From Cyanidioschyzon merolae (Eukaryota), in NCBI GenBank assembly GCA_000091205.1, contig AP006502.2: a stretch of DNA of 64,000 bases; one strand, given 5' to 3'. Positions within the stretch are counted from its first letter, which is position 1, and each line of letters starts with the position of its first letter. Positions 4,426-63,565 of this stretch are shown here, piece by piece. A model generated the notes under the pieces. The model did not search any database and was not told the DNA's origin. It was given only the letters and a program-made list of their open reading frames with translations. A program made the translations under genes and the position numbers.

Positions 4426-4453
4426 ATGGCAAAAGGAGCGCGTGCGTCACCGC

Positions 4454-5494
4454 TTATCGGAATTCATGAAAATCTGTATTGCTCTGCTCCGTAAGGATCG
4501 TTTTTCGCTCGAGTTCGCGAAACCTGGCAATCGACTGATCGCGTGCCTCATTTTCCATCATGTTTCCGAGCTCAGGTGGTGCATCATTTGGATCAATCTG
4601 CTGCTCGCGATTGAGCTCCTCCAGCACCGACTGCGCGACGTGTAGATCCCCGTAACCAAAGCACTGACTGCATCGCTCTTTGCGCAGTCCCCCGCAGAGC
4701 GGACATCGGAGCAAGTTCCCGTACGTCAAGCGTATGGGCAAGTAGACCATGATGCGATTGCTCTTAAAGTTCTGCTGGTACTCGCTCTCGTGTATGATGC
4801 CGCGGCCGCCGCAGTATTCACAGGTCTCCCAGCCGGAGCCATTACATGTGGGACAACAAGTTTTCTCCTCGAGCTCCTCTAAAGTTTGTTTCGTTTTCGG
4901 TGTTGACGAGTCCAGCTTGCGACTGAACAAGTTCTGCATGGCAAGCCGGAGCTGCTCTTCTATTTCACCGCTCGGCACCAGCGGGCTATTCTCATACGCC
5001 ACAAGACACCGTAGCACTCGCTCGGGCGCCTTCTTGACAACCGTATCGATTTCATTAATGCGACACTTTTGGCCGTTGAGCTCGCAGGCCGACCAATCCG
5101 GCTCGTCCGAAGGCGACGGGTCCGGCCCCGGCTCTACGATGCTACCGTGACGAAAAAACATGTCCAGCGTCGCCGGTGACAGCTGTTTCGACTGCGAGTT
5201 TCGACGTGCGACCAGGTCGGGGATAGTCTCAGCGTCTTCATACTTCGCCTTGCGGTTGGTCCTTTCGGTCGGTCTCGCATTCGAACGCTTCCGTGGCCGC
5301 GCGGCCTCGGGAGTTACACCTGACTGCGCAGGGTGCCGCGCACGGCGGACGTTTCTCACGTTCGCATCAGCGAGCTTCTTCTTCCCTGTCTGTGGTTTCG
5401 AAGCAGACGGCTCTGCGCAAGCTACCGCAAAGCAGCAAACACGAGTGCTTCCACGCCTGACATGGGGTTGGTATAACGCCAGTTCAGAAAACAT
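4454..5494 (-). CDS. DnaJ-type cysteine-rich (CxxCxGxG) zinc-finger domain protein without a J-domain. Basic, S/R-rich N-terminus (possible organellar targeting).
   Basis: Four CxxCxGxG-type repeats: 'CPTCNGSG', 'CEYCGGRG', 'CPLCGGLR', 'CSQCFGYG'. No HPD motif. 346-aa ORF. Confidence 0.5.
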   Translation of the reverse strand: MFSELALYQPHVRRGSTRVCCFAVACAEPSASKPQTGKKKLADANVRNVRRARHPAQSGVTPEAARPRKRSNARPTERTNRKAKYEDAETIPDLVARRNSQSKQLSPATLDMFFRHGSIVEPGPDPSPSDEPDWSACELNGQKCRINEIDTVVKKAPERVLRCLVAYENSPLVPSGEIEEQLRLAMQNLFSRKLDSSTPKTKQTLEELEEKTCCPTCNGSGWETCEYCGGRGIIHESEYQQNFKSNRIMVYLPIRLTYGNLLRCPLCGGLRKERCSQCFGYGDLHVAQSVLEELNREQQIDPNDAPPELGNMMENEARDQSIARFRELERKTILTEQSNTDFHEFR

Positions 5495-5559: not shown

Positions 5560-6250
5560 ATTATGAAAACCGGAATAGGTGGTATGGATTCGGGTACGAA
5601 CGCGCTATGCGCGCTACGCCCGTGCGTAAGCTTGAATCCGAGTCCTGAGCGACTCGGTTTGCTCCGGTCTCCCCATGATTCATCGGTATTTCCATTCGAT
5701 TGTTTTCGATCTCCAAGTGCGTTGAATCAAATGCTTTTTCGTGGGTTGTAGCGGACGCGTTCGGAGTGCGTTCATTAGAAGAAATGAAAAATCAAAGGGA
5801 AAGGTACGGGCATGGAGGTCGCGGATGCTAGAGGGCGTTGATCGCCTGGTACCGAAAAGAAGAGGAAAAAATCCTCTGCTCGTCGACTGTCGCGCGATGA
5901 AGACCAAGTGACGAAGGCGAAGAAGAAGAGACAGAGAGGGAATCGTTTAGAAAACAGGTTTGTCTGACGGGATGATGGCGAGACTGTATTGGCACAGAGG
6001 GCACGAGTTCCAGCAATCCGTGCATTGGTGAGTTCCACTGGCGTCCATGCATGCAGGGTTCTCGTGAACGAAGACTTGAACGTCCGCATCCGTATCAGAC
6101 GATATCCGGTGCTGAAGAAAAGACCTGAGGAGACGATGCGATCCGAGTTCGTGGAGCAGCTTGTGACGCTTGTATTATGCAGGGAGAAATTGAAACCGAT
6201 AACAGTCTGCAGGTCGAAAAAGGCCGAGAAGCGCCTGCGAGGGGGTATCT
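5560..6250 (+). mobile_element. Short (~0.7 kb) internally deleted derivative of the TnpB-like family. It keeps 5'-end-like blocks and the RuvC-III remnant plus the 3' block.
   Basis: 'ctcgtgaacgaagacttgaacgtccgcatccgtatcagacg' (= FVNRDLNAAIHIRR, frameshifted). 3' block 'gaaattgaaaccgataacagtctgcaggtcgaaaaaggccgagaagcgcctgcgag'. Collinear with the 54040-54700 copy over its whole length. Carries the family-B-like 'ttttcgatct' and 'accggaat' blocks at its 5' side. Confidence 0.5.
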
Positions 6251-8994: not shown

Positions 8995-9375
8995 AGAAGC
9001 ACAAAACTACCGAGCTTTCCGCACGCGTTTCGCGTTCTACAAAGCGGCTTCGGAACGAGTGATCCAACACCGCAAAAGTTGCTGTGTTATGCGTTGACGA
9101 AACCGAAGCAGGGTCGCAAGGCAGGGCCCAAAAGGCGCGACTCTATGGACAACGCTTCTAGGGTCCTCGAAAGGCACTAGAGGCGGTACACGCGCTCAAG
9201 CTGTTTCAACGTGTCCGGTACAGCACCGTGTCGTGCGTCAAGCGAGCACAGCACCGGCTACTAGACGGCATCGCGAACGCGGGTGGCGCGCAAAGCTGTT
9301 TCGCGATGCGCGGCGGCGGGACGACGGCGATCGCTGGGCCATTCAGCCGCGCAGGGACACAGGCACCAGCGCATT

Positions 9376-9680
9376 TTTTCATGGACAAAACGTTAACTGG
9401 GGCCAGCGCTCTCCGATTATGCGCATTTTTCTTTTCTTACTTTTTTTTTGTGTTTATTTTTCAGTGCACGGTAAAGTATTCATCAACTCCTACCTCCAAG
9501 TTACATTACCCAGACTTTTTTCTCGGATACGCTGGTCGTTTCATACGTCCTATCGTGTGAGCCTAGTACCTGCCGAAAGCGACCGCTATGGCGCCTATAG
9601 CGCCGGTGCGGTCGCTGCACGGAGACAGAACGGCGTTGCCGTAGCACACACAGAGGGCGTCGGCTCGAGGAGCAGCGCCT
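9376..9680 (+). repeat. Family C dispersed repeat (about 300 bp), copy 1.
   Basis: 'catggacaaaacgttaactggggccagcgctctccgattatgcgcatttttcttttcttactttttttttgtgtttatttttcag...' and 'cacggagacagaacggcgttgccgtagcacacacagagggcgtcggctcgag'. Confidence 0.6.
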
Positions 9681-13228: not shown

Positions 13229-13834
13229 ACCTGGATGATGACGTATAGCTGCGGAAGCGTTCGTAGGTGCAGCGTCATCTCCTGTACAGCGATCGTCGAG
13301 GGCGTGCGCGCTCCACCAGAGCGCGCTGTAAGCGGCGCTTCACTCGAGACGGTCGATTCGGGCGATGAGCGGCGCTTGCGCGTTCCACTGGTGCCCGCGA
13401 CAGATCGCAGACGGCTTTCTTTTTCGAGCTTGTGTCGTATCCGGACTACACATTTGAGGTGCTGGCTATGATAAGATTGCTCTTGATGACGCAAGTAATC
13501 GCAGGCATCCTGTTTGTGCTCATGGGTACACTGCAGCTCGTAGGCTGGGTTCGGGCGAAGCATCCGCAGTATCTGAAGGAATTCAGAACGCTATATCCCC
13601 GGGCGAGGAAATGCATGTTTCCTTTCATTTGATGAAAGCACGGAAGGCTCAGGAAATTTGTTTGCACGCCAATGGGCACATCCTGACTTGGATGTGCGAG
13701 GCCGGTGCGCATGTGACTTTTCGTCACTTTTGGATGATGGTGGATTCGATGATCGTTGCAACCGGTGCATCGTGGTCGTGCCGATGCTGCCGCCGCACAT
13801 GCCGTGGAGCGTGCTCAGAGTCGTGATGATGCTC

Positions 13835-14045
13835 GATATTCGAGCTAGAAAAGCGCACTCGGATTGTTTTCCCAGATTACCGTAGCGGCGACTTGTCATC
13901 ATCCTGCATCTGAACGTTTTGGGCATCGTCATGATGCTCGATATTCAATCGACAAAAGTGCTCTCGGATTGTTTTCCCAGAATACCGCAGCGGCGACTTG
14001 TCATCATCCTGAATCTGAATGTTTCGGGTACGTCTTAAGTTTACG
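13835..14045. repeat. Tandem duplication, 2 x about 105 bp, about 90% identical.
   Basis: 'tgatgctcgatattc...ggattgttttcccaga(t/a)taccg(t/c)agcggcgacttgtcatcatcctg(c/a)atctgaa(c/t)gtt' appears twice. Confidence 0.8.
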
Positions 14046-14246
14046 CACTAGGAAACCGTGGCTTCCCGTGCGGCTTTGTCAAGCACTGTTCGCGACCAGC
14101 ATGCCATCACCAGAGCACCTGGCGCCGGCCGGAGCCTTCAGCTTCTTTTACCGATCGTTTGATAGCGTCAGTCAAGATGGATCGGTTCTGGACTTCAGCT
14201 CCATCACGAGTGTTTTAGACAAAACGCCATCAGTATCAGATGATGT

Positions 14247-14440
14247 ATGGTGATGGAGGTGCGACCTGCGGAGCTGGTGCGATCCAACTTTGGGCGGCAG
14301 CCTGCGAGGCTAGAGATATGCAAGGAGAGGCTGAAACCGATCGCAGTCGGCAGGTCAAAACAGGCGGGGAGGCGTCTGCAATTGGGTATCCCTTTACCCT
14401 ACATGCGCATAGGACATTTCTCGGTTTCATTGAGTATAAA
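14247..14440 (+). pseudogene. TnpB-like 3'-terminal remnant (tail only).
   Basis: 'RLEICKERLKPIAVGRSKQAGRRLQLG' with 'gaggctgaaaccgatcgcagtcggcaggtcaaaacaggcggggaggcgtctgcaa'. Abuts an inverted family-B copy. Confidence 0.45.
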
Positions 14441-19666: not shown

Positions 19667-19896
19667 CCTGGGAAGCGCCTTGGTGCGCGAAGCGGCAACA
19701 AATGGTACTCGAAGCCGTCAACAAGTCTCAGAGGATGCTCGGGCACCTCCTCAACAAATAGTGACGAGGTAACGATCAAAAGTCGGGTGTGGCGGGTATG
19801 CAATCGCTATGATGCTGCACAGCACGCGTCAAAGAACCAGCTGTCGAAAAACCGAAACCTACCCGACGACGATACGCGTTACTGCTCTCTTTATGA

Positions 19897-20070
19897 GCAC
19901 TTGTCACCGGTGAGCGCTGGCACCAAAGTCCTCTGCACAGCGCGCTCCTCACAGCACCAGCTTGTCGCGTTCTATCCTCTAGCACAAGAGCTTCCCGTCC
20001 GAGCACTTGTCACCGGCGAGCGCTGGCACCAAAGTCCTCTGCCCAGCGCGCTCCTCACAGCACCAGCTTA
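19897..20070. repeat. Direct repeat, 2 x about 66 bp separated by ~43 bp. Lies in the bidirectional region between the AGC kinase (-) and the DUG-fusion gene (+).
   Basis: 'cacttgtcaccgg(t/c)gagcgctggcaccaaagtcctctgc(a/c)cagcgcgctcctcacagcaccagctt' occurs twice. Confidence 0.8.
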
Positions 20071-20528
20071 CCGCGTACCGTATACCGTAGGTGTCGTGCT
20101 TTGACGTCAGTACGCTCAGCAGCTCCCGATTTTATCAGGTCCGGTCTGATCCAGGAAAACGAAAAGACTCTCCACCGACACGTGAAAAGGACGCTATGTC
20201 CAAAGCACCGGGTAACGCTCGCGGACGTCGAACACAAGAACGCCACCGGCCTGAGAGGGCGAGTTTCGAACCCGCACCACCACCGTTTGGCTTCGCCCCC
20301 TGGAGCGCAGCGCTCAACGGTGACGTCGCACCGCAGTCGGTATGCAGGGGTCGCGTCTTTACGCAGGGGACTTCGTTTAGCGACACTTGGAAAGGTACAC
20401 TGCTACACAGTGAAGAACCGTGCTTGCACTTGTGGCAGCGAGTCTCGTGACTGTGACCAGAAACTCTATCATCGAGCGATTTTGCATTAGCTGCGCACCG
20501 CTGCCTCTCAACCGCACCGTACTTCAAC

Positions 20529-25103: not shown

Positions 25104-25354
25104 TTTGCAGCAGTTGTCGCAGCGAGCCGAAAATCGTTTGCGTTCCCTTGTCCGCGGAAGCCGCAACCACGAGTTGGCGTCACCAGCGTCGCTCTGAACG
25201 AGTCCTGCTTGCGCGTGCGTGCACTGGCCAGGGTAGAGCCCTTCGTGGACGTCACCTGCAATGGCACGAAGACGCTCTGGTCCGTGCGTCACAGAGTCGT
25301 GCATACCGCGGCTGGTGCACCGCGCCAACACAGGTGTCCTCGTTTGGGTTCTCT

Positions 25355-25650
25355 CATGGATAAAACGTTTTCTTAGACCAGCGTTTTCCGATTGTGTGCT
25401 TTTTCTTTTCCTACTTTTTTCGTGTTTTTTCAGTGTGCTTTGAAATATCCATCAAACCCGCTACCTCCGAGTTACATTACCTATACTTCTTCTCGGATAT
25501 TTTCGTCGTTTCATGTGTTCTATCGCACACCTTATGCCTGCCCTAATCATCCGCAATAGCGTCTTTACCTTTGGTCCAGTTGCATCACGGAGACAGAACG
25601 GCGTTGCCGTACCACAGAGGGCGTCGGCTCGAGCTCGGTTGGGTGCAGGT
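25355..25650 (+). repeat. Family C copy 2, immediately upstream of ORC4.
   Basis: The same blocks in the same order ('...cacggagacagaacggcgttgccgtaccacagagggcgtcggctcgag'). Confidence 0.6.
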
Positions 25651-32642: not shown

Positions 32643-32868
32643 GTTACGACGGATGCAGCGTGGACCCGAACACGCGTGCGCTCCGAACGTACACCTGATG
32701 CAAGTTATAGCGTGCTTCCGCCTCGGCGGTCGGTGCATCGCGGAACTACGACGGATGCAGCGTGGACCCGAACACGCGTGCGCTCCGAACGTACACCTGA
32801 TGCAAGTTATAGCGTGCTTCCGCCTCGGCGGTCGGTGCATCGCGGAACTCGGTGTAGTGCTCTGTGGC
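32643..32868. repeat. Perfect tandem duplication, 2 x about 113 bp.
   Basis: 'ctacgacggatgcagcgtggacccgaacacgcgtgcgctccgaacgtacacctgatgcaagttatagcgtgcttccgcctcggcggtcggtgcatcgcggaa' occurs twice in succession. Confidence 0.9.
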
Positions 32869-34809: not shown

Positions 34810-35317
34810 GCGCTCAGTAACTACAACGAGTTGCGTGGTAGTGCGACCTTAAACTCGACTGGAGTGCGCTGGCACCACGTGCTCTAGAAATGCACGTTTC
34901 AGCCACAGAGACGCGTAGTGACGCCTCAGTAGCGCGTACTAAAACTCCGCGGCAGCTTGAGCCTATGCGTAGCCAAGAGAGTCGGCGTGAGCAGCTTTCT
35001 CGATGAAACCGCTCCTGCAAGATCGTGCTCGATTTTGATTGCAGTGCAAAGCAACCCTTTGAAAAGTTAGGGAATAAGTCGGAGTCTGTGGTGTTGCACT
35101 CCCCAGAACTAAGCGTTATCTCTTGGTGGTCCAGCGGGTAGGCAGCGTGATTAACGCATCGGCGCACGCCTCTGTAGGCTGGACCAAAGGCTCCGCGCCG
35201 CGGACGTCGCCGTGCTGCACAGATCCCGCTGATCGATCTGCTTGATGACGCTCGATCGCTACGAGGCCGTGCGTGATGCGGTTTTTTCGGATATTGCCTT
35301 GTAGGATCGATATTTCC

Positions 35318-35870
35318 GACCTGGAAGTATTACTGCTTGCATAAGTACAGCTTAAATATGATTTCTGTATAGATCCTATCATTGTAAAAGACGGATGCAT
35401 CTGACCTGAAAGCATGACTGCTTGCATAAATACAGCGTATACATGATTTCGTTATAAATCCTATCATTGTACAAGACAAATGCATCTGACCTGGAATCAT
35501 GACTGCTTGCATAAATACAGCGTATACATGATTTCGTTGTAAATCCTGTTATTGTACAAGACCAATGCATCTGACCTGGAATCATGACTGCTTGCATAAA
35601 TACAGCTTAAATATGATTTCTGTATAGATCCTATCATTGTAAAAGATTGATGCATCTGACCTGAAAGCATGACTGCTTGCATAAATACAGCGTATACATG
35701 ATTTCGTTGTAAATCCTGTTATTGTACAAGACCAATGCATCTGACCTGGAATCATGACTGCTTGCATAAATACAGCTCAAATATGATTTCTGTATAGATC
35801 CTATCATTGTAAAAGATTGATGCATCTGACCTGAAAGCATGACTGCTTGCATAAATACTGCTCATATTGC
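35318..35870. repeat. AT-rich tandem repeat, about 6.5 units of ~85 bp. Two alternating variants give a ~170-bp higher-order period. Lies in the divergent AKR/ASS intergenic region.
   Basis: Units such as 'gactgcttgcataaatacagcgtatacatgatttcgttgtaaatcctgttattgtacaagaccaatgcatctgacctggaatcat' repeat head-to-tail. Overlapping identical small ORFs in the track (MQAVM...) reflect the periodicity. Confidence 0.9.
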
Positions 35871-43837: not shown

Positions 43838-44985
43838 TGTCATATATAGAACTGGGGCAAACCTAGCTGCACCGCTGTCGGAATGAAGCGGAAAAGGCCT
43901 GTACAACAAGTGCGCAAACTAGTGTTCTGCACTGTGTTCCAATTATCATTTAAACCAGTCTTTACGGTTTGTGTTCCTTGGCTGGTTCCTTTTACACGCT
44001 CTCATCTCGGGGTTTAAAAATGATGGCATGCCCTTTCACATCAGATTCGTTGTCAATATTCGGAGGATAATGAAGGCAGCACTCAAGTCCCGATTTCCCT
44101 GTTTCCGGCAATTGCAAACGCGTTTCGTGTAAAGGCAAATGTTGCGATCTACGACTCTTTCTCGTATACAGCCTTGGTGCATCCTTTACAGCAGCGACAC
44201 TATGGCATGGTCAGGTGTTCCCGTATGTCCTTCAAACCTATTCCTCCGATCGCCGCCCGGTGGCGCGACAAACGCTTAGTTCGTCGCCCGGTACATGCGC
44301 TTAATGGACACAGCGGCTACCAAGATGCTCTCCTCTGTTTAAGCGCCCAGTGCCGCAGCCCACGATCACGGGCTCTTTCGGGGCCACGCACTCGGCGCGT
44401 ACGCTGTCCGCTACACACGCAAGCACACGTTGCTCCATTCGATAGAGATTTTCTGGAACGCGCTGCTGTCCATCATAGAGCAATGCTCGGAAGCGGAAAT
44501 CCACGCTGCATATCAAGTCGAGAAACGTCGTTCTGTCCAGGCTTGGCTCTGACAGAGCTCTGACGCAGTTGCCACCGAGAGCGATCGCTGCGGTGACGCA
44601 AGCCCCAGTACGAGACACGTTTCCACGCAAACGGAAGAGATGGAAGCCTCTGGCTGCATGCCCGGCAGGATGCATCAAGCTGATGTGGAATGCGGTCTCA
44701 CCGTGGGCCACACTGAGAATAGGATTTGCGTTTCGAACGGCTCGAGTATTTGAAGCGACAGTCTCAGTGACCTTGGGGCATGAGCTTGTGAACCAGTGGT
44801 TCAGAGACGACGTCGGGTATTTCTCCTGCTCAATACGACGCTGGCGATTGCTGGGCGCTCGAGCTGCCTTGAAACCGGAGATCGAAACGTGAAAAAAGCG
44901 TGATTGTAGCATGCTACGCGGGAAGAGAGAAGAAAAGCAGCGGCTTGGACGTGCGCATTGGACAATGATGCCAGATGGCTTAAAA
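43838..44985 (-). mobile_element. Family B copy B5 (inverted), with an intact 203/224-aa ORF (44301..44912).
   Basis: The ORF is near-identical to those at 59828..60502 and 62545..63219. The reverse-complement terminus 'tgtcatatatagaactgg' is at about 43838. Confidence 0.6.
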
Positions 44986-45245
44986 ACGTTTATATGAACT
45001 CGCCGAGAATCGCCTTGATTCCAGTGACGGGACGCTTTCCAGCTGCAAAGAATCGAAACAGCGACTTTTAAAAGATAACCGATAATTAAAAAGTTCCAAA
45101 CGGATGTGTAAACCCCTCATGTTGGAATTCGAATATCGAAAGTGCATATCTGACATCTCGTTCAGAAAAGCATCGAGAGACACCACCGCCTCTCGAAAGT
45201 CGAACGACGTCGCCGGCAGTGTACAGTAGTGGCAAGTGACCCGCC

Positions 45246-47383
45246 CTAGACGAAACGTCTCCGACTGACGTGCAGACGCCTGCCCGTCTTTTTGGACCGG
45301 CCATCTACTACTGCTTCCATCTTCTTCTCATATAATTCAACTTTGAGAGGTTGTCCAATAAAGTTTTCTCTTGTCAGCTCTGGAGGTCTCTTCTCCAGCA
45401 CCGCACATCTCCTTATATTGATTGCGGCGATAAAATCTCGGTTCACAAACTCCATACGTTTCTTGCCATCATTCCTTGTACTCACCAGTGCAAGCAATCC
45501 TCGAACATTCTCCCTCCTTTCCATTTCCTCTTCCGTCAGCGGCCCGTACTTTTTTATGTTCCCAGGGCTCTATTGGCAATTTTCTATCTCCACTCTCTGA
45601 AGTACGCACCCCAGTTCATGGTGTGTATACGAGGTTCGAAACTCATCAACAGGTATCGTGGCGAAACGCCTTGCGCATTCCCTGTACGTTCTTGTCGTTG
45701 GAGTTGGCGTACAACCTTTTTTAGGCGCCAAGCACCCTGCCCCGTACGCTACTACGAGCCTTTGAGTCTTGTCCTCTTTGACGGCACTCAACTAATTGAA
45801 AAAGTTGGCAAACGCCCGCTGCCTCCCACCGTATAGATTCATTCGCAAACGAGCCCACCAGGGCTTGGTATACTCCTCCCACAGCGCATCCCAATGGGCA
45901 ACACGAACTTGCATGAATTTCAGAAAAGCTTCAAAGTCCGCTCCGCGGCTCGTCACCTCGCTCAAAGCTTCCAGGTGATCCTTCATTCCTGCATTCCGTA
46001 TCTCAATTTTCTTCCTCGCATTCGTTATACCCGATTCTCGATAATATATCGCTCTCGAGAGCCTCATCAGACGCATGTCTTTCTGACGTAAGTTGCCGTC
46101 AGCACCATCTTCCGCACGCTTCGGTGCTGCGATGGTTATGATATTCGTATTCCCGGGGCCCGCGCCAACGACAAGGTCGTTATCCTGCACTTTCTGTGTA
46201 TCAGGGCCCGCCTTCTTGTTTTCTTCATGCTTCGCCGCGCCAACCATAAAGGCGTTATCCTGCACCTCCTGCATCACAGGATCCGCTTCCTTCCCATCTT
46301 CATCCTTCGTCACGTCAACGACAAGGTCGTTATCCGGCATCATCTGCGTCGCATGATCCTCCTCTTTGTTTTCTTCATGCTTCGCCGCGTCAACGACAAG
46401 GTCGTCATCCTGCACTTCCAGTGTGGCAGGTTCGGCGTCCTTCTCATCTTCATGCTTCGCCGAGGGCGGGACCAAACGATCTGCCTTCAATCGCCGATTG
46501 TGTGCACACAAGTCTACTCCATCGGTTTCGATCATCCCAGTGAATACATTTTGTTTGCTCTTTTTGAGACGTTTGAAATCGAAGATATTCTTCCAGTGCG
46601 TCTCCCGGTTTTCGCCAGTGAAGTCCTCCCTGCGAACATTGAACTCCGGACAGATCTCCCTCATGATGCCATGAGGGACGCCAGAGTCGATAGTCACAAA
46701 ATGTGACTTGGTGTTGCATAATGGAACAACGTCGAAGCGCTTCCCCATTAGGAGAGCCTTCCGTCTCTCCCATTCTTCATTTTTTCCTCACTCAGCTTTA
46801 TTTCCGCCTTGCGTTCGAGCTCTCGGTCCAGAAACGCGAACTAACATAGGATGAGGCGATAGTATCTTTCCTTACCTTTTTTCAACTTTGATATCTTGTC
46901 TGTTGGATTCACCAGCCCCATGACTGCACGGTCTTCTTGTATAAGCGCACGGATTACAGAAGCTTCATTCGTGCTCTCTTTTGACGCCTTCTTGTCGACA
47001 AATTCGACCTCATCTTCATGCTTGCGATCGTTCGTGATGCCATTGATAATCGCCCATTTTCCTTTGCAAGAGATGCCCGAGTAGAGTGCAAACACGGCGC
47101 GTATCATGAAACGTTCGAGGTTCATTGTCAAATAGTTCTTCAGATTCGTGAGGTACTTCATCGCCCCATAGTCGTAAATATCCCGGTCACACTTGTATCG
47201 AGTACCGTTGAAGCTGTAAAAGGGATGTTTTTCGTGCAAGGCATGCACTAGCACATTTTCCCCCTGCGCTTCCGCTGTACCAAGTATCAGGTGAGGAATA
47301 AAGGTCTTATCGAAAAACACGTCCGGAATCTCGACCGTTTCCATGTACGTCACGTCTTTGTAGATCTCCCTCGCCAAATGCAT
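45246..47383 (-). mobile_element. Near full-length TnpB/Fanzor-like (OMEGA-family RuvC nuclease) element. The coding region (~690 codons) is disrupted by one frameshift (about 46841/46748) and two in-frame TAG codons. Best treated as a recently inactivated copy, or an intron-containing one.
   Basis: Minus-strand reading 47383->45246 gives, in order: RuvC-I-like '[11 protein letters not shown]'; an acidic tandem-repeat insertion; RuvC-II-like 'LSEVTSRGA'; 'ALWEEY...LRMNLYGG...RLVVAYGAG'; 'IPVDEFRTSYTHHELGC' (TnpB 'VdpxyTSqxCsxCG' position, zinc finger degenerate); RuvC-III 'KKRMEFVNRDFIAAINI'. The whole region is AT-richer than the flanking host genes. Confidence 0.6.
46100..46450 (-). repeat. 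Coding tandem repeat (about 75-78 bp / 25 aa, about 4 units) inside the Fanzor-like ORF.
   Basis: Protein repeats '[21 protein letters not shown]', '[59 protein letters not shown]'. The + strand ORF track shows the same periodicity (HKGVILH... / NDKVVI...). Confidence 0.7.
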
Positions 47384-48829
47384 CAGTCCCGACGACGCCT
47401 TGACGATACTCTTAGAGTACGAGTCGACACGTTATTTTTATAGCATCTCGCAACTTTTCCCTGTAGGGATCCTTGATATGTTCAAGAAAACAGGTCTTCA
47501 CCACCATCTCGTCGTAGAGTTGTCTTCCCCGCGCAGCCTTCGACTTAGGGCATCCCCCTTTCGGTTCTTCTCCTCTTCCATTTCTTCTGGACTCGGCACT
47601 GTTCTTTGTTTATTTTTATGGCAGCTGGAGACCCTGAGCCTCCAAGATCGTGGACTTGCTTTTTCATAACTTTCCTTTTTTTAGTTTTTTTTTGAAAAAG
47701 AACACTCTTTGAACGCTTCTGTTATATTCTGCGAATAAACACTCGAGTGTTTTTACTTGAGGTTTGAAACACGACTGAGATGAAACAATATATTTTGTTA
47801 CGATTCCAATGCAAATACAAGTCTTACGTTAGAACAAAACGCTACTGATTACGATCGCGTTTCCCTTCAACGGCGACATGCGCGTCGCGTCAGTTGACTG
47901 CCTGATCTCCTTGGTGCGCTCACCGAGCGGGATGCAAACTAGTCACAAACTTTTTATCAAAGATCAACTATCTTAAAAGCCCCACACACCACGCCCGCCT
48001 AAGTGGTCCAATTTTTCCGGAGAAGCTCTGAAAGTGGGTTAACACGAATGTTTGGGCGACGAGGAAGGAAGCCCACTCCAGGGACCTTGACCGCAACGAA
48101 CGGAGGGGCAGAGGCAGTAGCAGAGAATGATGACGAGAATTCGAAGTAGTTATCCGCTGCTCTCGAAACAAGGCTGCAGGTTCGGGCGCAAATCCTGGAT
48201 CCATCCTTGAATTCGGGCTCAGTTTTATGGTCTATCTTGGTTTCTACCTCAACTTTGGAAACAATCTCGGCGGATACTTTGGAAGACGGCTGACAGCATG
48301 TTCGCCGTCGAAGCTGACATAAGCGACTTGCCCGCCTATGTGTTTGGGGAGCGGATACGAAACCGCTGAAAGGGTGGTTTGTAGACTGTTCCCAATGGTT
48401 TAGGGTGGCTTCACGCGTCCGGCAAGATAAAGGTCGCATTTGAATCGACCTTGACTAATGTACTTTTGATTCTATGCTAGCGCTGCGGCAGATACGCAAT
48501 GAACGACTGGAATGCAGGAGGCAATGGTGGCTTGTGCGCTCACATACCCCGTGGAGGGTGCATCTAAATCGACCTTCTAGTCGGAAGGTCCAGCGAATCG
48601 GATACGCACACTGGCACATTGCGCTTTCTGCGCTTACCCACTGTGGTGGGTGTCAAGCACAAACCCGCATTGCCAACCGACAACAACGCATTCCATGCAT
48701 GATCACGAAGGAGAGAGGCGGCTCCCAGAATGTATCCTAACAGCCAAGTTTCTCCAGCGTGTCGTGCAGCGAAGGCAAGCTTGCATCCGCAGACTGTCCA
48801 AGCACAAACTGACGACGAGATCCGATTCT

Positions 48830-49140
48830 ACGTCGGGTGAAGCACACCTCGAGCCGACGCCCTCTGTGGTATAGAAAAGCTGTTCCAGCTCCATGAACTA
48901 TCTGCTCCAGCATTTAAGGTGCAAAGGCGGACACGGAAAGGCAGGTAGTAGGCACACAAAATATGACGTGTGAAACGACCAGAATATCCGAGAATAAAGT
49001 CTGGGTAATGGAGCTTGGAGGCAGGGCGTTTGATGGATACTTTACAGTGCACTGAAAAAACACAAGAAAAGTAAGAAGAAAAATGTACATAATCGGAGAA
49101 CGCTGGCCTAAGTAAACGTTTTGTCGATGAAAAAAATACG
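48830..49140 (-). repeat. Family C copy 3 (inverted), just upstream of the 49203 gene.
   Basis: The reverse complement carries 'catcgacaaaacgtttacttaggccagcgttctccgattatgtacatttttcttcttac...' and 'ctataccacagagggcgtcggctcgag'. Confidence 0.55.
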
Positions 49141-54039: not shown

Positions 54040-54700
54040 TGCAGAAAATGTGCCATCCCGCGCAATCTCGCACCGGATCGCGCTCGATCGTTGAAGCATG
54101 CTGGTGATTCACGTCAATGATGTGCCACATTCAGGTGCATCTCATTGTATGCTTTTTCGCAACTTTTAGCAGATACGGTCAAAGTGCGTCCACTTGAAGC
54201 AATAAAAAATCCAAGGGAAAGGTATGGACATGCAATTCGAGGATCCTGGAGGCTCGGTGTCGCCGAGTACCGGAGAAGAAACGGAAAAAACGTCTTCTCG
54301 CTGATCATCGAGCGAAGAAGAGCAAGCGAAGAAGAAACGGGAGATAGGCGAGAAAAAATGCGTTTGCCCGACTGAACGATAATGAGACGCTAGTGGCACT
54401 GGGGACATGAGTCCGAGCAATACTTGCAATGGTGCGTTCCACCAGAGGCAACAAACGCATGGAATTCGTGAACCGAGACTTGAATGCCGCCATCCATATC
54501 AGACGAGGAGTGGTGCTGAAGACGAGACTCGCACAGCTGATGTAATCCAGCTCTGGGGCGCAGCTTCTCAGGCTCGAAGTGTGCCCGGATCAATCGAATC
54601 CGATCGCAGGCGACCAGTCAGAAAAGGCTGGGAGTCGTTTGTAAGTGGAAAAGTGTTTACCCTCCGTGATCGTGGGACGTTTTCCGTTCTACTGGCGATA
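54040..54700 (+). mobile_element. Second short deletion derivative of the TnpB-like family. It starts immediately after the (CCTG)n microsatellite.
   Basis: 'GAFHQRQQTHGIREPRLECRHPYQTRS' overlaps the frame encoding 'NKRMEFVNRDLNAAIHIRRGVVLKTRL' (54440-54540). 3' block '...aatcgaatccgatcgcaggcgaccagtcagaaaaggctgggagtcg'. Homologous to 5700-6250 throughout. Confidence 0.5.
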
Positions 54701-57007: not shown

Positions 57008-57714
57008 ATAACACCCGGAAATCCATGGACGATGCGCGAGCCGAGATTCTCAACGAGAGCGCAGCTCGAGGGGTCGCCGCCTGCGCTCGAGCGAAGCGCT
57101 CAAAAAGCTGTACGCAAATACGCAGTTCATGAGGCGTTCTTTAGTGGGCCTTGATGCGGACTGTCAAGGTATTCGGTTCCCTATTTGTTTCGTGTGCAGG
57201 GCCAATGTACATGATTTTTTCTAAAACGACTGTTGCTCGCTTTTCTGGTCAGAGCTTCCATATGCTGCTTACACTGGAGAAGCGAGCACTTTTGTAACCA
57301 GGTTCAACTGGAGCGACCCGCTCGCCGTGAACCTGGAAATATCTCCAGCTTTAGCCTAGTACTTTTCGGCGGTTGAATGGCATGGTTTCTGTATACTTTC
57401 GCTGAAGTTAAAGAGGCGGACTGCTTACCCATGCTTTGTCTGCAATAACAAGTTGGATCTTTTCAGGAGTTTCGCGCTGGAATCCATCTGCTTCTTTCCG
57501 TATTCGGCATGCCGCCACATAACCGGAGGCAACGTCATGTCGACCGTTTTAGAGTTTGTGTAAAAGAAGTCGCATGAGATCGCAACCATGGATGTGGTTC
57601 CATTGGAACCGGCAGAGAAGATACCGAGGTGTCTCAGCGACGCGCATACGATCCACACGTCGATATCGTCGGTGAAACAAACAATGCCCCACGACCATGG
57701 AGGGTCAATATATG

Positions 57715-57830
57715 AACATTCACAGGCGCTTCCCAGCCTTTTTCACGGTTGGCCTGCTATCGGTTTCAATTTCTCACTGCGCACTTGGAGCTTGTGAGGC
57801 TGTACCACGAAGTTAGATCGCGTCGACTCC
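57715..57830 (-). ncRNA. Candidate right-end / omega-RNA-like scaffold of the TnpB-like family. Example copy; equivalents at about 325-440 (-), 1150-1262 (+), 6150-6250 (+), 14300-14400 (+), 45205-45330 (-).
   Basis: A conserved ~60-nt block overlaps the last codons and stop of every copy. A stem-loop differs in sequence between subfamilies but stays paired. Flanks diverge 10-25 nt downstream. Confidence 0.3.
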
Positions 57831-58075
57831 TCGAGTCTCGTCTTCAGCACCCTACATCTCCTGATTTTGATGGAAATGTTGAAGTCTCGGTTTTCGAACT
57901 CCAAGCTTGTCTTGCCGCTGGTTCTACTTGCCAATGCATGGTGTCCTCGAATACGTGCCCTCGGTGCCATTTGCTGTTCTGTCAGCTCTCCGTGCTTTTC
58001 TATCGTCGAAGCGCTCCGCTGCCTTCTCTTCTATCCCAAACCTCTGAAGTGTAAACCACAGCTCATCCCGTATTT
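57715..58075 (-). pseudogene. TnpB/Fanzor-like 3' fragment (about 360 bp), 5'-truncated.
   Basis: ORF 57743..57970 'LEFENRDFNISIKIRRCRVLKTRLEESTRSNFVVQPHKLQVRSEKLKPIAGQP*'. 3' block 'ccgtgaaaaaggctgggaagcgcctgtga' immediately after the TGA stop. Homology to the 350 copy ends about 10 nt later. Confidence 0.6.
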
Positions 58076-59579
58076 GTTTCTAAAATGAACCCACTTCCTA
58101 GTGCCCTTTGGTGTGGACCTTCCCTGAGGGGGACACGCTTGCGGCACAAAGGCGGAATAGACACCGTCCTGGTCGCGTGCCGAAAGCTTCTGTGAGTCGC
58201 CCAGTGGCGCGATCATTACGTTTCAGGATACAGAACGCTCCTTCGGTGACGTTGAACCACGGAGAGTATGGAGCAATGGAAAGCAACTCTACCTCCCAAT
58301 AGCATCGGCAAAAGCTTGCACGCAATAAAAATGGTGAAATGGCGCGTTGTCGTCTGGAAAGACGTCTCCAGACGTGGGGAGAAGGGTCTTCAATGATTCG
58401 GCAAAGTGGGTGTTGTTGTATGAGCCTTCCCTACGAGCGAAACTGAGGCCGTCAAATATATCCACTGCAGCTGGAGCCGATGATGATGCCTTAGCTCTTT
58501 TCGAGTTCGATCGTACATACAACGGACCCCCTGCTCCGCGAGTACCCATATACGCCCCGACCGTATCGCTCGGACGAAGTCTCACTGACTGGCAAAACAA
58601 ACTGACGTCACTTTGCTTCATATCGATCGTGACATTCCAGGAATTCTCCAGTCGTAATTTCGGTGGAAGATAGCCGTGATTGAACTAGGACGCTTTTGTG
58701 CCAGGCTCCTAGAGTTTACAGGTCCACACGGACAAGCGGTTGAATAACAGAGACGCCCATGATGGCTTCTATACTCGCTTCAGCTTTCCATAAGCTCATC
58801 AACGGTTCGTTTTCTATCATTGACCTCAATCGCGCTTTGAGAATATCGGTTTCTGGCGCGGAACGCATAGCCTTCTTCTTGTCGGTGTTCCTCGAGTATC
58901 TGATTACTATGGTATGACGGACCTGAAGCAGGAATGCAGTCCTCCTTCCATTGTCCAGTAAAGAGCAAATATCCAATAGGCAAGTGCTCTACGATCTATA
59001 CGATATACTGCTTTGTGATTTCGATCTCCTGCTGGAGACTGCGAAAAAGCATGTGATGCCATGCAGCGGGGCGACGGAACAGAGTTGAGTTGGAAGACTA
59101 TTCGATGGACGGGCGTTCAATCTCCAAAGGCTTTTTGCTGCATATCCCAGCAGCTAGCTCATAGACTTGGATCTGTATCGAAGTTTTGGAGGGTTTCACG
59201 GAGAACGCTTGAACGCTGCAGGCACAGAGCGGGCATAGAACTCCACGAGAGAGACTATCGAGACGAGGTGTGATAAATCGCGTAGCGCCGCTCTTCCACA
59301 ACATCGGCAATATCATTTTGCAACACAGCGAACGGCAATTGAGGCAGTTTTTTGTGTCAGTCGTGTATCTTCCATGTAAAGCCTTTGCAGGATATCGGTT
59401 TGCCATGAGTCGCTAGCACGGGGCGTTGTCCACGACGGCCGAGCTTGACTTGAGGCGCGCCGGCTCTCGTTTGCTGGCCCTTGATTAATACTGAAGCGCG
59501 GTCAACTCGCAATCATCGTGCAAGCATAAAATCCACCCGTGAATTGATAGCGCTGTTCCTGAATTGAGATATTTTCCGA

Positions 59580-60835
59580 ACGTTTCATAAAATGGACAGC
59601 GACGAATTCATGTTGCATCAATATGGGCTTACGGGTGAAAAAGATTTTTTAGGATTCTTTCTCGTCTCTTTGAGATATGGCGCCTTCGACGCTTTGCGGC
59701 TGGAATTCGTTCGGTCGTCGGAATCTGGATGATTTGCGACCTCATTGAGAGGATTCGTTAAGGAACCAAAATCATCATCCAATGCATACGTACAATCCTC
59801 TACTCTTCCTCTTTCGTACCGCGTAGCATGCTACAATCACGCTTTTTCCACGTTTCGATCTCCGGTTTCAAGGCAGCTCGAGCGCCCAGCAATCGCCAGC
59901 GTCGTATTGAGCAGGAGAAATACCCGACGTCGTCTCTGAACCACTGGTTCACAAGCTCATGCCCCAAGGTCACTGAGACTGTCGCTTCAAATACTCGAGC
60001 CGTTCGAAACGCAAATCCTATTCTCAGTGTGGCCCACGGTGAGACCGCATTCCACATCAGCTTGATGCATCCTGCCGGGCATGCAGCCAGAGGCTTCCAT
60101 CTCTTCCGTTTGCGTGGAAACGTGTCTCGTACTGGGGCTTGCGTCACCGCAGCGATCGCTCTCGGTGGCAACTGCGTCAGAGCTCTGCCAGAGCCAAGCC
60201 TGGACAGAACGACGTTTCTCGACTTGATATGCAGCGTGGATTTCCGCTTCCGAGCATTGCTCTATGATGGACAGCAGCGCGTTCCAGAAACTCTCTATCG
60301 AATGGAGCAACGTGTGCTTGCGTGTGTAGCGGACAGCGTACGCGCCGAGTGCGTGGCCCCGAAAGAGCCCGTGATCGTGGGCTGCGGCACTGGGCGCTTA
60401 AACAGAGGAGAGCATCATGGTAGCCGCTGTGTCCATCAAGCGCATGTACCGGGCGACGAACTAAGCGTTTGTCGCGCCACCGGGCGGCGATCGGAGGAAT
60501 AGGTTTGAAGGACATACGGGAACACCTGACCATGCCATAGTGTCGCTGCTGTAAAGGATGCACCAAGGCTGTATACGAGAAAGAGTCGTAGATCGCAACT
60601 TTTGCCTTTACACGAAACGCATTTGCAACAGCCGGAAACAGGGAAATCGGGACTTGAGTGCTGCCTTCATCCTCCTCCGAATACTGACAACGGCATTGGA
60701 GGAACTGAGAAGAGTGGCGAATTTACACCCGGAGATAAACGAGAGGAAAAGGAAGCAGCCGCAGAACAACCCGCAAAGTGTGATGTAATTGATAATGGGA
60801 AGAGGCCCAAACCTTAGATTGTGTATCAGTGTTTG
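59580..60835 (+). mobile_element. Family B copy B6 with an intact 224-aa ORF (59828..60502). Directly upstream (3' side) of the PMM gene.
   Basis: 'ccttcgacgctttgcggctggaattcgttcgg', 'tttcgatctccggtttcaaggcagctcgagcgcc'. Tail '...gaggaaaaggaagcagccgcagaacaacccgcaaagtg...aaaccttagattgtg...ggtccggttacttttctttctgacatgag'. Confidence 0.65.
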
Positions 60836-61337: not shown

Positions 61338-62123
61338 TCACGCAGCCAGCACCGCCGGATCCAACAGAGTCTCTATCTGCGGAAAGAGCTTCCGCAACAC
61401 TACGATGGTTTCCCCTGGATTCTGAACAGCGTACCCCTCAACTCTTGGATGCGAGAATATTTCCCAGTCGTTGCCCCCCTCAAAGCACTTGTCACCGATG
61501 AAAACAATCCGAGAATATTCCTTTTCAGGTAGGAACCGCAGCGCGTACTCTTTGGTCCATCCCTGTGGCATCACATCAAATGATATCTGGCCACCTATCG
61601 AGTATACGAAATTCAAGTGCTTGAAACGCTCCCGAAGATGCTCGATCATCTGCTCTCGTATGTGGTGTTCTTTGTCGTAGGCCTCGAACTCGTCTCGTTC
61701 CGCCTGAGAACAGTTCCGTCCAATCGGGCTTATATTAAGCATCCCGGTACGAAACTCGATAAACGTGCCTCTTTTCTGTGGAATCTTCAAGTCAGCTATA
61801 TAGTGCAGGCAAAAGTTGATAAACTCTTGCAGCTTCGCCTCGCCCACGGCCTCAAGCAGCGACGTCGACGCTAACAGCTCTCCGTGTTGGAACGTTTTCA
61901 GCCCGTTTTCTGCAAAAACATAGTCCACTTCTTTAAGAATTTCAGCGCCCAACTGCTCTTCGATCAGCCCTATTCGAGAGCCGCCAATGAAACCTACCGC
62001 AACCACCTGCAACAGCGCTCGGAGCACTGCGAGCACTTTCGTCGTTACTCGGTTCCGCGGTTTCGTGAGCGTTCCATCCACGTCAAAGAGTACTATCGTT
62101 CGAGAATCTTTGACTGTGGACAT
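61338..62123 (-). CDS. PMM: Phosphomannomutase (eukaryotic PMM, HAD superfamily).
   Basis: 'LFDVDGTLT', 'GGSRIGLIEEQLG', 'KRGTFIEFRTGMLNISPIGR', 'SIGGQISFDV', 'GDKCFEGGNDWEIF'. Collinear with human PMM1/2. Confidence 0.95.
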   Translation of the reverse strand: MSTVKDSRTIVLFDVDGTLTKPRNRVTTKVLAVLRALLQVVAVGFIGGSRIGLIEEQLGAEILKEVDYVFAENGLKTFQHGELLASTSLLEAVGEAKLQEFINFCLHYIADLKIPQKRGTFIEFRTGMLNISPIGRNCSQAERDEFEAYDKEHHIREQMIEHLRERFKHLNFVYSIGGQISFDVMPQGWTKEYALRFLPEKEYSRIVFIGDKCFEGGNDWEIFSHPRVEGYAVQNPGETIVVLRKLFPQIETLLDPAVLAA

Positions 62124-62299: not shown

Positions 62300-63565
62300 T
62301 TTTAGATGTACAGCCTGGGCATTCAAAGTTCAGCAATGAGTGCTTGAGGATTCATACGTCGATTTAGGTTTCTCGGTCGACTTCTTCAGGTGGCTGCTCT
62401 GATTCTTTGCCGCTGCGCTCTGTTGCGGCACTGCAGTCAAGATGATTCGATCCGCGCTTTAGAGGAAGGGTTCGTTAAATAACTGAAATCATCATCCAAT
62501 GCATACGTACAATCCTCTACTCTTCCTCTTTCGTACCGCGTAGCATGCTACAATCACGCTTTTTTCACGTTTCGATCTCCGGTTTCAAGGCAGCTCGAGC
62601 GCCCAGCAATCGCCAGCGTCGTATTGAGCAGGAGAAATACCCGACGTCGTCTCTGAACCACTGGTTCACAAGCTCATGCCCCAAGGTCACTGAGACTGTC
62701 GCTTCAAATACTCGAGCCGTTCGAAACGCAAATCCTATTCTCAGTGTGGCCCACGGTGAGACCGCATTCCACATCAGCTTGATGCATCCTGCCGGGCATG
62801 CAGCCAGAGGCTTCCATCTCTTCCGTTTGCGTGGAAACGTGTCTCGTACTGGGGCTTGCGTCACCGCAGCGATCGCTCTCGGTGGCAACTGCGTCAGAGC
62901 TCTGCCGGAGCCAAGCCTGGACAGAACGACGTTTCTCGACTTGATATGCAGCGTGGATTTCCGCTTCCGAGCATTGCTCCATGATCGACAGCAGCGCGTT
63001 CCAGAGAATCTCTATCGAATGGAGCAACGTGTGCTTGCGTGTGTAGCGGACAGCGTACGCGCCGAGTGCGTGGCCCCGAAAGAGCCCGTGATCGTGGGCT
63101 GCGGCACTGGGCGCTTAAACAGAGGAGAGCATCATGGTAGCCGCTGTGTCCATCAAGCGCATGTACCGGGCGACGAACTAAGCGTTTGTCGCGCCACCGG
63201 GCGGCGATCGGAGGAATAGGTTTGAAGGACATACGGGAACACCTGACCATGCCATAGTGTCGCTGCTGTAAAGGATGCACCAAGGCTGTATACGACACAG
63301 AGTCGTAGATGGCAACTTTTTCCTTTCGATCCTTAGCGTTGGCAAGAACCTGAAGTAGCTGAGTCTGCACTTGAACGCTGCCATCATTATCCTTCGACTG
63401 CTGCCTTCGGAAAATGAGGGAACAGAGAAACCAGCGGATTCAAACTCGGAGGTAAGAAAGAGGAATAGGAAGCAGACGCATAAAAATTCATCAATAGCCG
63501 GTATTTATGATAGTGGGAAGAGAGCCAAACTTTAGCATCTACCCGGGAGTTAGGTAAGTCGATCC
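62300..63565 (+). mobile_element. Family B copy B7, near-identical to B6, with an intact 224-aa ORF (62545..63219). Lies on the other side of the PMM gene.
   Basis: Same blocks as B6. Terminus 'gatccgttctattctattctggcacgag' at about 63545-63570. Confidence 0.65.
62545..63219 (+). CDS. Family-B element-encoded ORF (224 aa), function unknown. It contains a 'KEPVIVGCGTG' block that aligns with the TnpB RuvC-I 'vvGIDLG' position, but the catalytic Asp is missing.
   Basis: Intact in three copies (also 59828..60502 and 44301..44912). In degenerate copies the 'PVIV(G/R).G' block changes mostly at third codon positions (cccgtgatcgtg / cccgtcatcgta / cctgtgatcgtc). Confidence 0.4.
   Translation: MLQSRFFHVSISGFKAARAPSNRQRRIEQEKYPTSSLNHWFTSSCPKVTETVASNTRAVRNANPILSVAHGETAFHISLMHPAGHAARGFHLFRLRGNVSRTGACVTAAIALGGNCVRALPEPSLDRTTFLDLICSVDFRFRALLHDRQQRVPENLYRMEQRVLACVADSVRAECVAPKEPVIVGCGTGRLNRGEHHGSRCVHQAHVPGDELSVCRATGRRSEE

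Follow-up and report, generated by a model that had tools for sequence, protein, structure and literature searches.

On the minus strand, the interval 45187 to ~49136 of the 64,000-nucleotide stretch of Cyanidioschyzon merolae DNA analyzed here (contig AP006502.2, hereafter the window) is almost certainly a decayed copy of the transposon CMe-1A, one of about 150 old copies, and a neutral relic for which no function is expected. The original prediction, made from the letters of the sequence, had recognized at this nuclear locus a degraded RuvC nuclease of the TnpB/Fanzor type, and this is borne out both by profile matches to two solved Fanzor1 structures (9cf0 and 8gkh) and by 83–87% nucleotide identity to CMe-1A. 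It had also presented the locus as the candidate for an interesting new system, a claim that does not stand, since CMe-1A was described in 2013 as a Fanzor1 transposon of C. merolae (Bao and Jurka, 2013, Mob DNA 4:12; PMC3627910); the element family, its host, copy number, consensus and Fanzor1 affiliation are thus already published. The published consensus measures 3169 bp and encodes a single-exon protein of 734 aa, and the approximately 150 copies of the family are about 80% identical to it and lack terminal inverted repeats (TIRs) (PMC3627910).

Identity and Layout of the Element

The ZPR1 ORF of the window is identical at 464 of 464 positions to that of C. merolae 10D (BAM83275.1/XP_005539311.1), and the ORFs adjoining the element are eukaryotic housekeeping genes. 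In blastn comparisons, positions 671–2196 of the CMe-1A consensus align to 47907–46385 of the window with 83% identity and positions 2117–3169 to 46239–45187 with 87%, while identity over consensus positions 650–3169 as a whole ranges from 79 to 87%. A consensus rebuilt from 50 copies is close to the published CMe-1 protein, with long identical stretches common to both. The window copy shares with CMe-1A the host, the right end, a 5′ module related to TE-N2_CMe, the absence of TIRs and the protein, and it differs from the consensus in being a pseudogene with four frameshifts, three stops and a D-to-G change in RuvC-I, in carrying four acidic repeats instead of about one, and in having some 640 bp, placed after the 5′ module and before the leader, that are missing from the published consensus. 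The features of the element are collected in Table 1.

Table 1. Features of the CMe-1A copy, listed from the 5′ to the 3′ end of the element.
Feature	Position	Strand	Evidence or remark
Whole CMe-1A-type element, ~3.95 kb	45187–49136	−	blastn to published consensus and metagenome copies
5′ module related to TE-N2_CMe, first ~635 bp of CMe-1A	48572–49136	−	Consensus and L001 alignment
Subfamily-specific segment, ~640 bp	47930–48571	−	Unaligned between the two consensus blocks
5′ leader, before the ATG	47668–47929	−	CMe-1A 650–908 alignment; conserved with L001
Degraded Fanzor1 ORF, ATG 47667 to TAG 45248–45246	45246–47667	−	Global alignment, translations
Frameshift, +2 nt, consensus codon 19	47612–47613	−	Consensus ORF alignment
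Frameshift, +2 nt, consensus codon 44	47533–47534	−	Consensus ORF alignment
Frameshift, +1 nt, consensus codon 77	47434	−	Consensus ORF alignment
Premature TAG for Tyr274 (TAT)	46841–46843	−	Consensus ORF alignment
Frameshift, −1 nt, consensus codon 293	46785–46787	−	The only one in the original prediction
Acidic 25-aa (75-bp) tandem repeat, 4.0 copies	46160–46462	−	Tandem Repeats Finder
RuvC-I strand GAGPGN (GADPGN in consensus and relatives)	46149–46166	−	Relatives, consensus alignment
Premature TAG for Gln553 (CAG)	45792–45794	−	Consensus ORF alignment
VDEFRTS block, Glu retained	45630–45650	−	Clade alignment, PpFz1/SpuFz1 alignment
Premature TAG for Arg627 (CGG)	45570–45572	−	Consensus ORF alignment
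RuvC-III block NRDFIAAINI	45414–45443	−	Translation, clade and consensus alignments
3′ untranslated tail, 59 bp, ends in terminal hairpin	45187–45245	−	

The right end is firm, as consensus position 3169 corresponds to window position 45187 and the homology to 24 other copies also ends within a few bases of it, and the left end is approximate, lying at about 49106–49137 without being set to the base. No inverted pair was found between 45187–45210 and the regions of 47930 or 49100, in agreement with the published description of the family as devoid of TIRs (PMC3627910). The alignment to the consensus falls into two large blocks (64–533 and 650–3169), split by the additional ~640 bp, in place of which the published consensus has only ~116 bp; contiguous homology runs through this segment in the metagenome loci L006, L017 and L046/47/49. 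In the 5′ module, positions 64–533 of CMe-1A are 64% identical to window 49043–48572, and the module is 87% identical to positions 4401–4962 of metagenome locus L001; solo copies of it occur elsewhere in the window, at 9374–9671 and 25354–25633. The leader (CMe-1A 650–908 against window 47929–47665) is 79% identical and is followed by a conserved start ATG, and the ORF as a whole is 86.7% identical to the consensus ORF in a global alignment. The earlier description of a segment of roughly 2.2 kb was therefore right in seeing a near full-length gene and too short at its limits, with respect both to the start of the ORF and to the extent of the element; the adjacent 47400–48450, which had been taken as AT-rich non-coding DNA, belongs in part to the N-terminal coding region and to the 5′ leader.

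At least five further relics of the family lie within the window, most of them 3′-end fragments, and a palindromic pair of 5′-truncated 3′-end fragments is found at 357–1285.

The 3′ End and the Question of a Guide RNA

At its 3′ terminus, at 45187–45209, the element carries a 10-bp hairpin, CGTCGTTCGA-CTT-TCGAGAGGCG. In most copies of the family, TT(T)G follows the right end. Given that the guide RNAs of Fanzors arise from the 3′ end, beside the right end of the element (PMC10530073), it may be asked whether, with the protein gene dead, the 3′ end with its hairpin still gives rise to an fRNA-like or regulatory RNA or acts as a site of recombination. The hairpin is nearly intact in the window copy, with two mismatches, it is paired in 87% of cells across copies compared with 30–57% in slid controls, and the prevalence of 3′-end fragments among the other relics of the window points the same way. 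Against this, covariation is no better than in shuffled alignments, as 49 of 500 shuffles reach the observed count of hairpin pairs changed on both sides, and RNAalifold on the last 300 nt gives a covariation term of +0.08, so that neither the pair count for the terminal hairpin nor RNAalifold yields significant covariation for an fRNA structure. Moreover, no part of the element is less conserved than the 3′ UTR (0.21 divergence), the window gave no match to Rfam, and with no intact partner protein an RNA of this kind would have nothing to guide. A surviving use of the 3′ end is accordingly improbable. A scan of the window for tRNAs was empty as well.

Lesions of the Coding Region

The original prediction, which counted one frameshift and two in-frame TAG codons, was correct as to the kinds of lesion and low in its totals, which are four frameshifts and three premature TAGs (Table 1). 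In addition, the catalytic Asp of RuvC-I is replaced by Gly (GADPG to GAGPG). Because of the four frameshifts, the three premature stops and this substitution, the window copy cannot encode a working nuclease, and it offers neither a continuous ORF nor a complete D/E/D triad. As had been claimed, no intact copy was found in the window; outside it, a set of 50 distinct related copies taken from metagenomes includes no intact one, and none of 80 metagenome loci holds a copy at least 97% identical to the window element. According to Bao and Jurka (2013), the family does include some intact copies.

Fanzor genes in some eukaryotes carry introns, and all three internal stops are TAG, which could suggest a live gene whose stops and frame breaks are removed by splicing or whose TAGs are read through. 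The possibility that the TAG codons are intronic, left open by the original prediction, is contradicted by the alignment, in which they stand, without gaps, where Tyr, Gln and Arg codons are conserved, by the size of the frame breaks, which are indels of 1–2 nt and not of intron size, and by the listing of the family protein as single-exon. C. merolae, besides, has very few introns. The consensus ORF, too, normally terminates at TAG, and the RuvC-I Asp is lost. A living gene at this locus is thus very improbable, and the copy is best regarded as dead.

Age of the Insertion and Past Selection

The GC content of the window between 45 and 48 kb (0.49, 0.50 and 0.45) is below the ~0.55 found over most of the window, as had been noticed from the letters. 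This difference is what favors a young or horizontally acquired insertion, the explanation offered for it originally. However, the family consensus itself has a GC content of 49.8% and the substitutions show no directional AT bias, so that low GC is a trait of the family itself. The window copy differs by 13% from the consensus ORF and by 16–17% from other copies; because of the former distance, the insertion is old, not young, and the approximately 150 old copies of the family in the genome and the further relics in the window argue in the same direction. A recent or foreign arrival is therefore regarded as highly improbable.

Decay driven by RIP-like mutation or deamination was also considered as an origin of the TAG codons and of the low GC, and was rejected on the balanced substitution spectrum and the GC of the consensus.

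Divergence from the consensus at the three codon positions of the C-terminal half is 0.085/0.063/0.167 and shows that the protein was under purifying selection before the copies died.

Homology to Fanzor1

No single-sequence search recognizes the protein, so its assignment to Fanzor1 depends on the profile of the family and the published consensus. The Pfam scan of the window translation gave no match even at E ≤ 10, phmmer against the PDB with the single window sequence returned only noise, and the family member P0001, to which the window copy is 75% identical, reached 12.1 bits in Pfam against a cut-off of 26.3, far under the gathering score. A profile of 24 close relatives, an alignment too shallow, also gave only noise against the PDB. 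The link emerged only when the profile was built from 50 diverse full-length family members; this profile matched PpFz1 of Parasitella parasitica (9cf0, E = 5.4e-19) and SpuFz1 of Spizellomyces punctatus (8gkh, E = 1.2e-11), with the RuvC-I, DEFRTS and RuvC-III blocks in register. Weak matches to PF07282 (TNB) were obtained for 20 of the 50 clade members (best E = 3.1e-5), the domain DUF8286 (PF26935) is precomputed on relatives, with no papers returned by a literature search, and the AlphaFold2 model of P0001, built from a shallow alignment, was unusable (pLDDT 31.7). That the motif series is a chance resemblance in an ORF of an unrelated family, as the lack of direct Pfam or PDB matches for the single sequence might suggest, has a practically negligible probability, given the profile matches to two solved Fanzor1 structures with the catalytic blocks aligned and the classification of the element as Fanzor1 in the literature.

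SpuFz1 and PpFz1 have in common with the CMe-1 family the blocks F..vP....fitiDt and TDG, as well as RuvC-I (iDPG), DE(F/Y)(R/K)TS and RuvC-III (nRD). In contrast to both, the CMe-1 clade has an acidic repeat linker before RuvC-I and lacks a CxxC...CxxC zinc ribbon in the interval from DEFRTS to NRD, where a single Cys (LLWC) is found. With TnpB (IS200/IS605, IS607) and Cas12f (PF07282/PF01385) the family shares the D...E...D RuvC arrangement, a TNB-type segment before RuvC-III, and carriage of the gene by a mobile element that lacks TIRs and has a hairpin at its end; it differs from these proteins in its much longer N-terminal half, its eukaryotic host, the lack of a TnpA partner and the absence of the canonical RuvC-II Glu.

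The Catalytic Site

All the motif strings listed in the original prediction are present, in the order given there, in the minus-strand translation of 45246–46850, including LYGG, VVAYGAG, IPVDEFRTSYTHHELGC and EFVNRDFIAAINI, and the RuvC-III block was read correctly. The first two catalytic positions, on the contrary, have to be reassigned. RuvC-I, placed previously at FVTIDSG, corresponds to the GAGPGN strand downstream of the acidic repeat; its Asp is present in the consensus and invariant in 50 clade members, and in the window copy, where the strand is present and this Asp is changed to Gly, the feature persists by descent only. The acidic 25-aa repeat itself is confirmed and precedes RuvC-I, instead of separating RuvC-I from RuvC-II as had been proposed; lying in the linker, it makes this copy 213 nt longer there than the published consensus, and its number varies among relatives.

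RuvC-II, placed previously at LSEVTSRGA, is not the catalytic site there. The canonical RuvC-II position is held by VVAYGAG, with Gly for Glu, and ~33 residues downstream follows the Glu of VDEFRTS, which is invariant in the family alignment and aligned with IDEFRTS of PpFz1 and LDEYKTS of SpuFz1. This is the rearranged site of Fanzors, in which the RuvC-II Glu is replaced by Gly or Pro and a conserved alternative Glu lies downstream (PMC10530073), and the Glu of VDEFRTS is likely the relocated catalytic RuvC-II glutamate, its putative role being deduced from this register. In the RuvC-III block, where R, N, A and N are invariant in the clade and D nearly so, the window copy keeps the Asp and has Ile for the Asn of the consensus (NRDFNAAINI).

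The zinc finger was rightly described as degenerate. Between [TS][TS] and RD, zero to three Cys occur across the clade and no CxxC pairs of a C4 zinc ribbon were found. Such a ribbon is part of the Fanzor1 motif, and CMe-1 was nevertheless classed as Fanzor1 (Bao and Jurka, 2013; PMC3627910). The missing ribbon is a clade-wide departure and, given the profile matches, no ground to exclude the clade from the family.

Proposed Action of the Intact Protein

From homology with characterized Fanzors, we infer RNA-guided cleavage for CMe-1. An intact element would encode a single-exon protein of ~734 aa, homologous to Fanzor1/TnpB, which would bind, as its guide (fRNA), an RNA transcribed from the element's 3′ end, and would cut DNA matching the guide by means of its RuvC site. 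In the predicted RuvC triad, GADPG and NRDFNAAINI would each contribute their Asp and VDEFRTS its relocated Glu.

Meaning for the Family

As a discovery, the element has little weight, the family having been published in 2013 and the copy being a dead relic. It is of use as a positive control, in that a reading of the raw sequence spotted a Fanzor/TnpB relic that Pfam misses, and the follow-up corrects the map of the catalytic site, with RuvC-I after the acidic repeat and the relocated glutamate in VDEFRTS. In public data, the CMe-1 clade resolves at 50% identity into 1482 clusters, among them the green-algal PNH08370.1 of Tetrabaena socialis. It is conceivable, though rather unlikely, that the clade is a distinct Fanzor1 branch without the C4 zinc ribbon, whose 5′-truncated 3′-end fragments act as stand-alone guide-RNA modules. 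Support for this idea is limited to the absent cysteines and the large number of fragments, such as the pair at 357–1285. The residual interest lies in a Fanzor1 clade without the zinc ribbon that was once counted in the defining motif.

Identity of the Element and Its Lesions

The element found on the minus strand at 45187 to ~49136 is a dead copy of CMe-1A, a transposon family reported from the C. merolae genome in 2013 (Bao and Jurka; PMC3627910). According to that report, CMe-1A is present in ~150 copies, each ~80% identical to a consensus of ~3 kb (3169 bp) without TIRs, whose first 635 bp are common to another repeat, TE-N2_CMe, and which encodes a single-exon Fanzor1 protein of 734 aa (supplementary table); TSDs were not determined, and intact ORFs were reported in some copies of the 10D genome (PMC3627910). 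The consensus, taken from the supplementary file of the same paper, aligns with the window as listed in the table. Its last base falls at 45187, and homology to 24 independent copies stops there as well, within a few bases, while no inverted repeat joining both ends of the window element was found. The stretch 47930-48571 measures ~640 bp vs. ~116 bp in the consensus, and this longer version also occurs in several metagenome copies.

All the peptide strings of the original prediction, in the same order, are contained in the minus-strand translation of 45246-46850, and the protein extends via an upstream frame to an ATG at 47667. The acidic 25-aa repeat (a 75-bp unit in 4.0 copies at 46160-46462, by Tandem Repeats Finder) and the low GC content (0.49, 0.50 and 0.45 in the 1-kb bins of 45-48 kb, ~0.55 elsewhere in the window) are equally real, so that the raw observation stands; its extent (45246-47383), its lesion count (one frameshift and two TAG codons) and its assignment of motifs to catalytic sites have to be corrected. 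Global alignment of the window ORF with the CMe-1A consensus ORF (86.7% identity) gave the lesions listed in the table. Introns, previously considered as the cause of the TAG codons, do not explain them, since the stops stand in place of sense codons with no gap in the alignment, and the indels that break the frame are of 1–2 nt only; the window ORF is a pseudogene.

Features of the window element and of related or other repeats in the window
Feature	Window position	Strand	Identity or remark
CMe-1A consensus 671-2196	47907-46385	minus	83%
CMe-1A consensus 2117-3169	46239-45187	minus	87%
CMe-1A consensus 650-908	47929-47665	minus	79%, more sensitive alignment
CMe-1A consensus 64-533	49043-48572	minus	64%, more sensitive alignment
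Frameshift, +2 nt	47613-47612	minus	global alignment to consensus ORF
Frameshift, +2 nt	47534-47533	minus	same alignment
Frameshift, +1 nt	47434	minus	same alignment
Frameshift, -1 nt	~46786	minus	same alignment
Premature TAG for Tyr274	46843-46841	minus	same alignment
Premature TAG for Gln553	45794-45792	minus	same alignment
Premature TAG for Arg627	45572-45570	minus	same alignment
Acidic repeat, +213 nt in frame		minus	same alignment
RuvC-I, GADPGN to GAGPGN	46166-46149	minus	same alignment
RuvC-III, NRDFNAAINI to NRDFIAAINI	45443-45414	minus	same alignment
VDEFRTS, unaltered	45650-45630	minus	same alignment
Fanzor1/CMe-1-like relics	54150-54647, 57707-58129, 5980-6237, 14226-14396		tblastn E 1e-7 to 1e-22
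Palindrome of CMe-1A 3′ fragments	357-1285		arms 374-789 and 818-1233
Solo TE-N2_CMe-like modules	9374-9671, 25354-25633		73-80%
1.1-kb dispersed repeat	43937-45065, 59685-60817, 62390-63535		91-92% between copies
Tandem array, 85-bp period	35315-35867		low-GC bin (0.455); self-comparison
Short duplications	32645-32849, 13821-14028, 19895-20076		self-comparison

The large ORFs of the window encode eukaryotic housekeeping proteins (TFIIH Ssl1, ORC4, ZPR1, a protein kinase and a patatin-like lipase) in long, uninterrupted reading frames. A search with the ZPR1 ORF led to a 99%-identical cluster including C. merolae 10D BAM83275.1/XP_005539311.1, and direct comparison with BAM83275.1 gave 464/464 identical residues. 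The window thus belongs to the nuclear genome of C. merolae 10D or of a strain that cannot be told apart from 10D.

Assignment to Fanzor1 and Catalytic Residues

The conceptual 807-aa translation gave no match in a Pfam scan or against PDB sequences. Its 24 close relatives (51-77% identity) all come from JGI metagenomes and share NRDFNAAINI as RuvC-III block; at the RuvC-I strand they have GADPG in place of the GAGPG of the window. With their profile, an exhaustive HMMER search retrieved 1482 cluster representatives at E ≤ 1e-3 (290 at E ≤ 1e-30), among which full-length clade members are typically of 600-700 aa and one is a hypothetical protein from a green alga, Tetrabaena socialis. The profile search proposed with the original prediction failed in Pfam for the single sequence but succeeded with a profile of 50 full-length members, which matches the solved Fanzor1 structures of Parasitella parasitica (9cf0, E = 5.4e-19) and Spizellomyces punctatus (8gkh, E = 1.2e-11), with the blocks ‘F..vP....fitiDt’, TDG, iDPG strand, DE(F/Y)(R/K)TS and nRD in register; 20 of the 50 members also show weak matches to PF07282 (Cas12f1-like TNB domain). 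These profile matches uphold the Fanzor-type call and place the family in Fanzor1. Many relatives (P0001, a member of the family, and others) carry the precomputed Pfam annotation PF26935 (DUF8286), for which no paper mentioning the domain was found; the entry apparently represents a region of CMe-1-clade Fanzor1, catalogued there under unknown function.

In the alignment of the 50 full-length proteins (A4), no variation is seen at the Asp of G-x-DPG or the Glu of VDEFRT, and almost none at the Asp of NRD-x-NAA-x-NI. In Fanzors, the canonical RuvC-II Glu is replaced by Gly or Pro and a conserved Glu ~45 residues away is used (Jiang et al., 2023; PMC10530073). Since the canonical position is occupied here by VVAYGAG, with a conserved Glu ~33 residues downstream in VDEFRTS, we infer that the latter would be the catalytic RuvC-II glutamate. 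By contrast, the string with ‘FVTIDSG’, formerly taken as RuvC-I, aligns with the fitiDt block in the N-terminal half of PpFz1 and SpuFz1, the counterpart of ‘LSEVTSRGA’, formerly RuvC-II, is a non-catalytic segment in the Fanzor1 profile alignment, and the linker immediately before RuvC-I, rather than the stretch between RuvC-I and RuvC-II, contains the acidic repeat. The description of a degenerate zinc finger was correct and holds for the entire CMe-1 clade, whose DEFRTS-to-NRD segment is without CxxC...CxxC, i.e., without a C4 zinc ribbon, its single conserved Cys being that of ‘GLLWC’ (A4, 50 members; window 45570-45650).

Right End and Terminal Hairpin

Characterised Fanzors bind RNA from the 3′ non-coding region abutting the right end (PMC10530073). 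In the window copy only 59 bp lie between the stop codon and the right end, and this tail ends in a 10-bp hairpin (consensus CGTCGTTCGA-CTT-TCGAACGGCG), present in the window at 45187-45209 with two mismatches. Pairing holds in 87% of cells over 24 copies, vs. 30-57% with a slid partner; double changes affect only 3 pairs, a count reached in 49/500 shuffles. RNAalifold found no covariation in the last 300 nt, and an Rfam scan gave no match. The hairpin is present at the right end of the element, and it may be part of an fRNA, of the transposition machinery, or of both. In most of the 24 copies, TT(T)G directly follows the terminal GGCG (alignment A5, columns 308-312), where the window has GTGG; these are either two or three further element bases or a target-site preference.

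Related Relics and Other Repeats

With the palindrome counted, at least six Fanzor1/CMe-1-like sites occur in the 64-kb window; those alignable to the consensus at nucleotide level are mostly 3′-end fragments, and greater divergence is seen in the relics at 5980 and 14226. The palindrome consists of two 5′-truncated CMe-1A 3′ fragments (consensus ~2613-3114) placed head-to-head, with arms 78% complementary, a 28-nt spacer and right ends outward. The TE-N2_CMe-like module, equivalent to the CMe-1A 5′ end, has the consensus orientation in the window element and other loci and is reversed in metagenome loci L003, L032/33, L035/36/78, L051 and L067, directly abutting the equivalent of window 47933, which points either to subfamilies in which the 5′ module is inverted or to repeated head-to-head insertion. 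Of the 1.1-kb repeat, one copy ends ~120 bp from the right end of CMe-1A, and the remaining two, in direct orientation, flank a HAD-type (phosphomannomutase-like) ORF (61338-62123).

Age, Decay and Selection

The 80 related metagenome loci were reduced to 50 distinct copies, the window copy included, and aligned. Their majority consensus, to which the window copy is 89% identical, has 49.8% GC, and no AT-directed bias was found among their substitutions, so that the low GC is a property of the family. RIP is ruled out as its source on both grounds, and the recent insertion first read from it gives way to an old copy. None of the 50 copies is without a stop or frameshift. At the first, second and third codon positions, the copies diverge from the consensus by 0.085/0.063/0.167 for the C-terminal half and by 0.106/0.091/0.135 for the N-terminal half, vs. 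0.18-0.21 in the UTRs, a pattern that shows purifying selection on the Fanzor1 protein as the family spread, the copies having decayed since. The original prediction had caught a real Fanzor1 relic, invisible to standard domain scans; the copy is dead and old rather than young, and its family has been known in the C. merolae genome since 2013.
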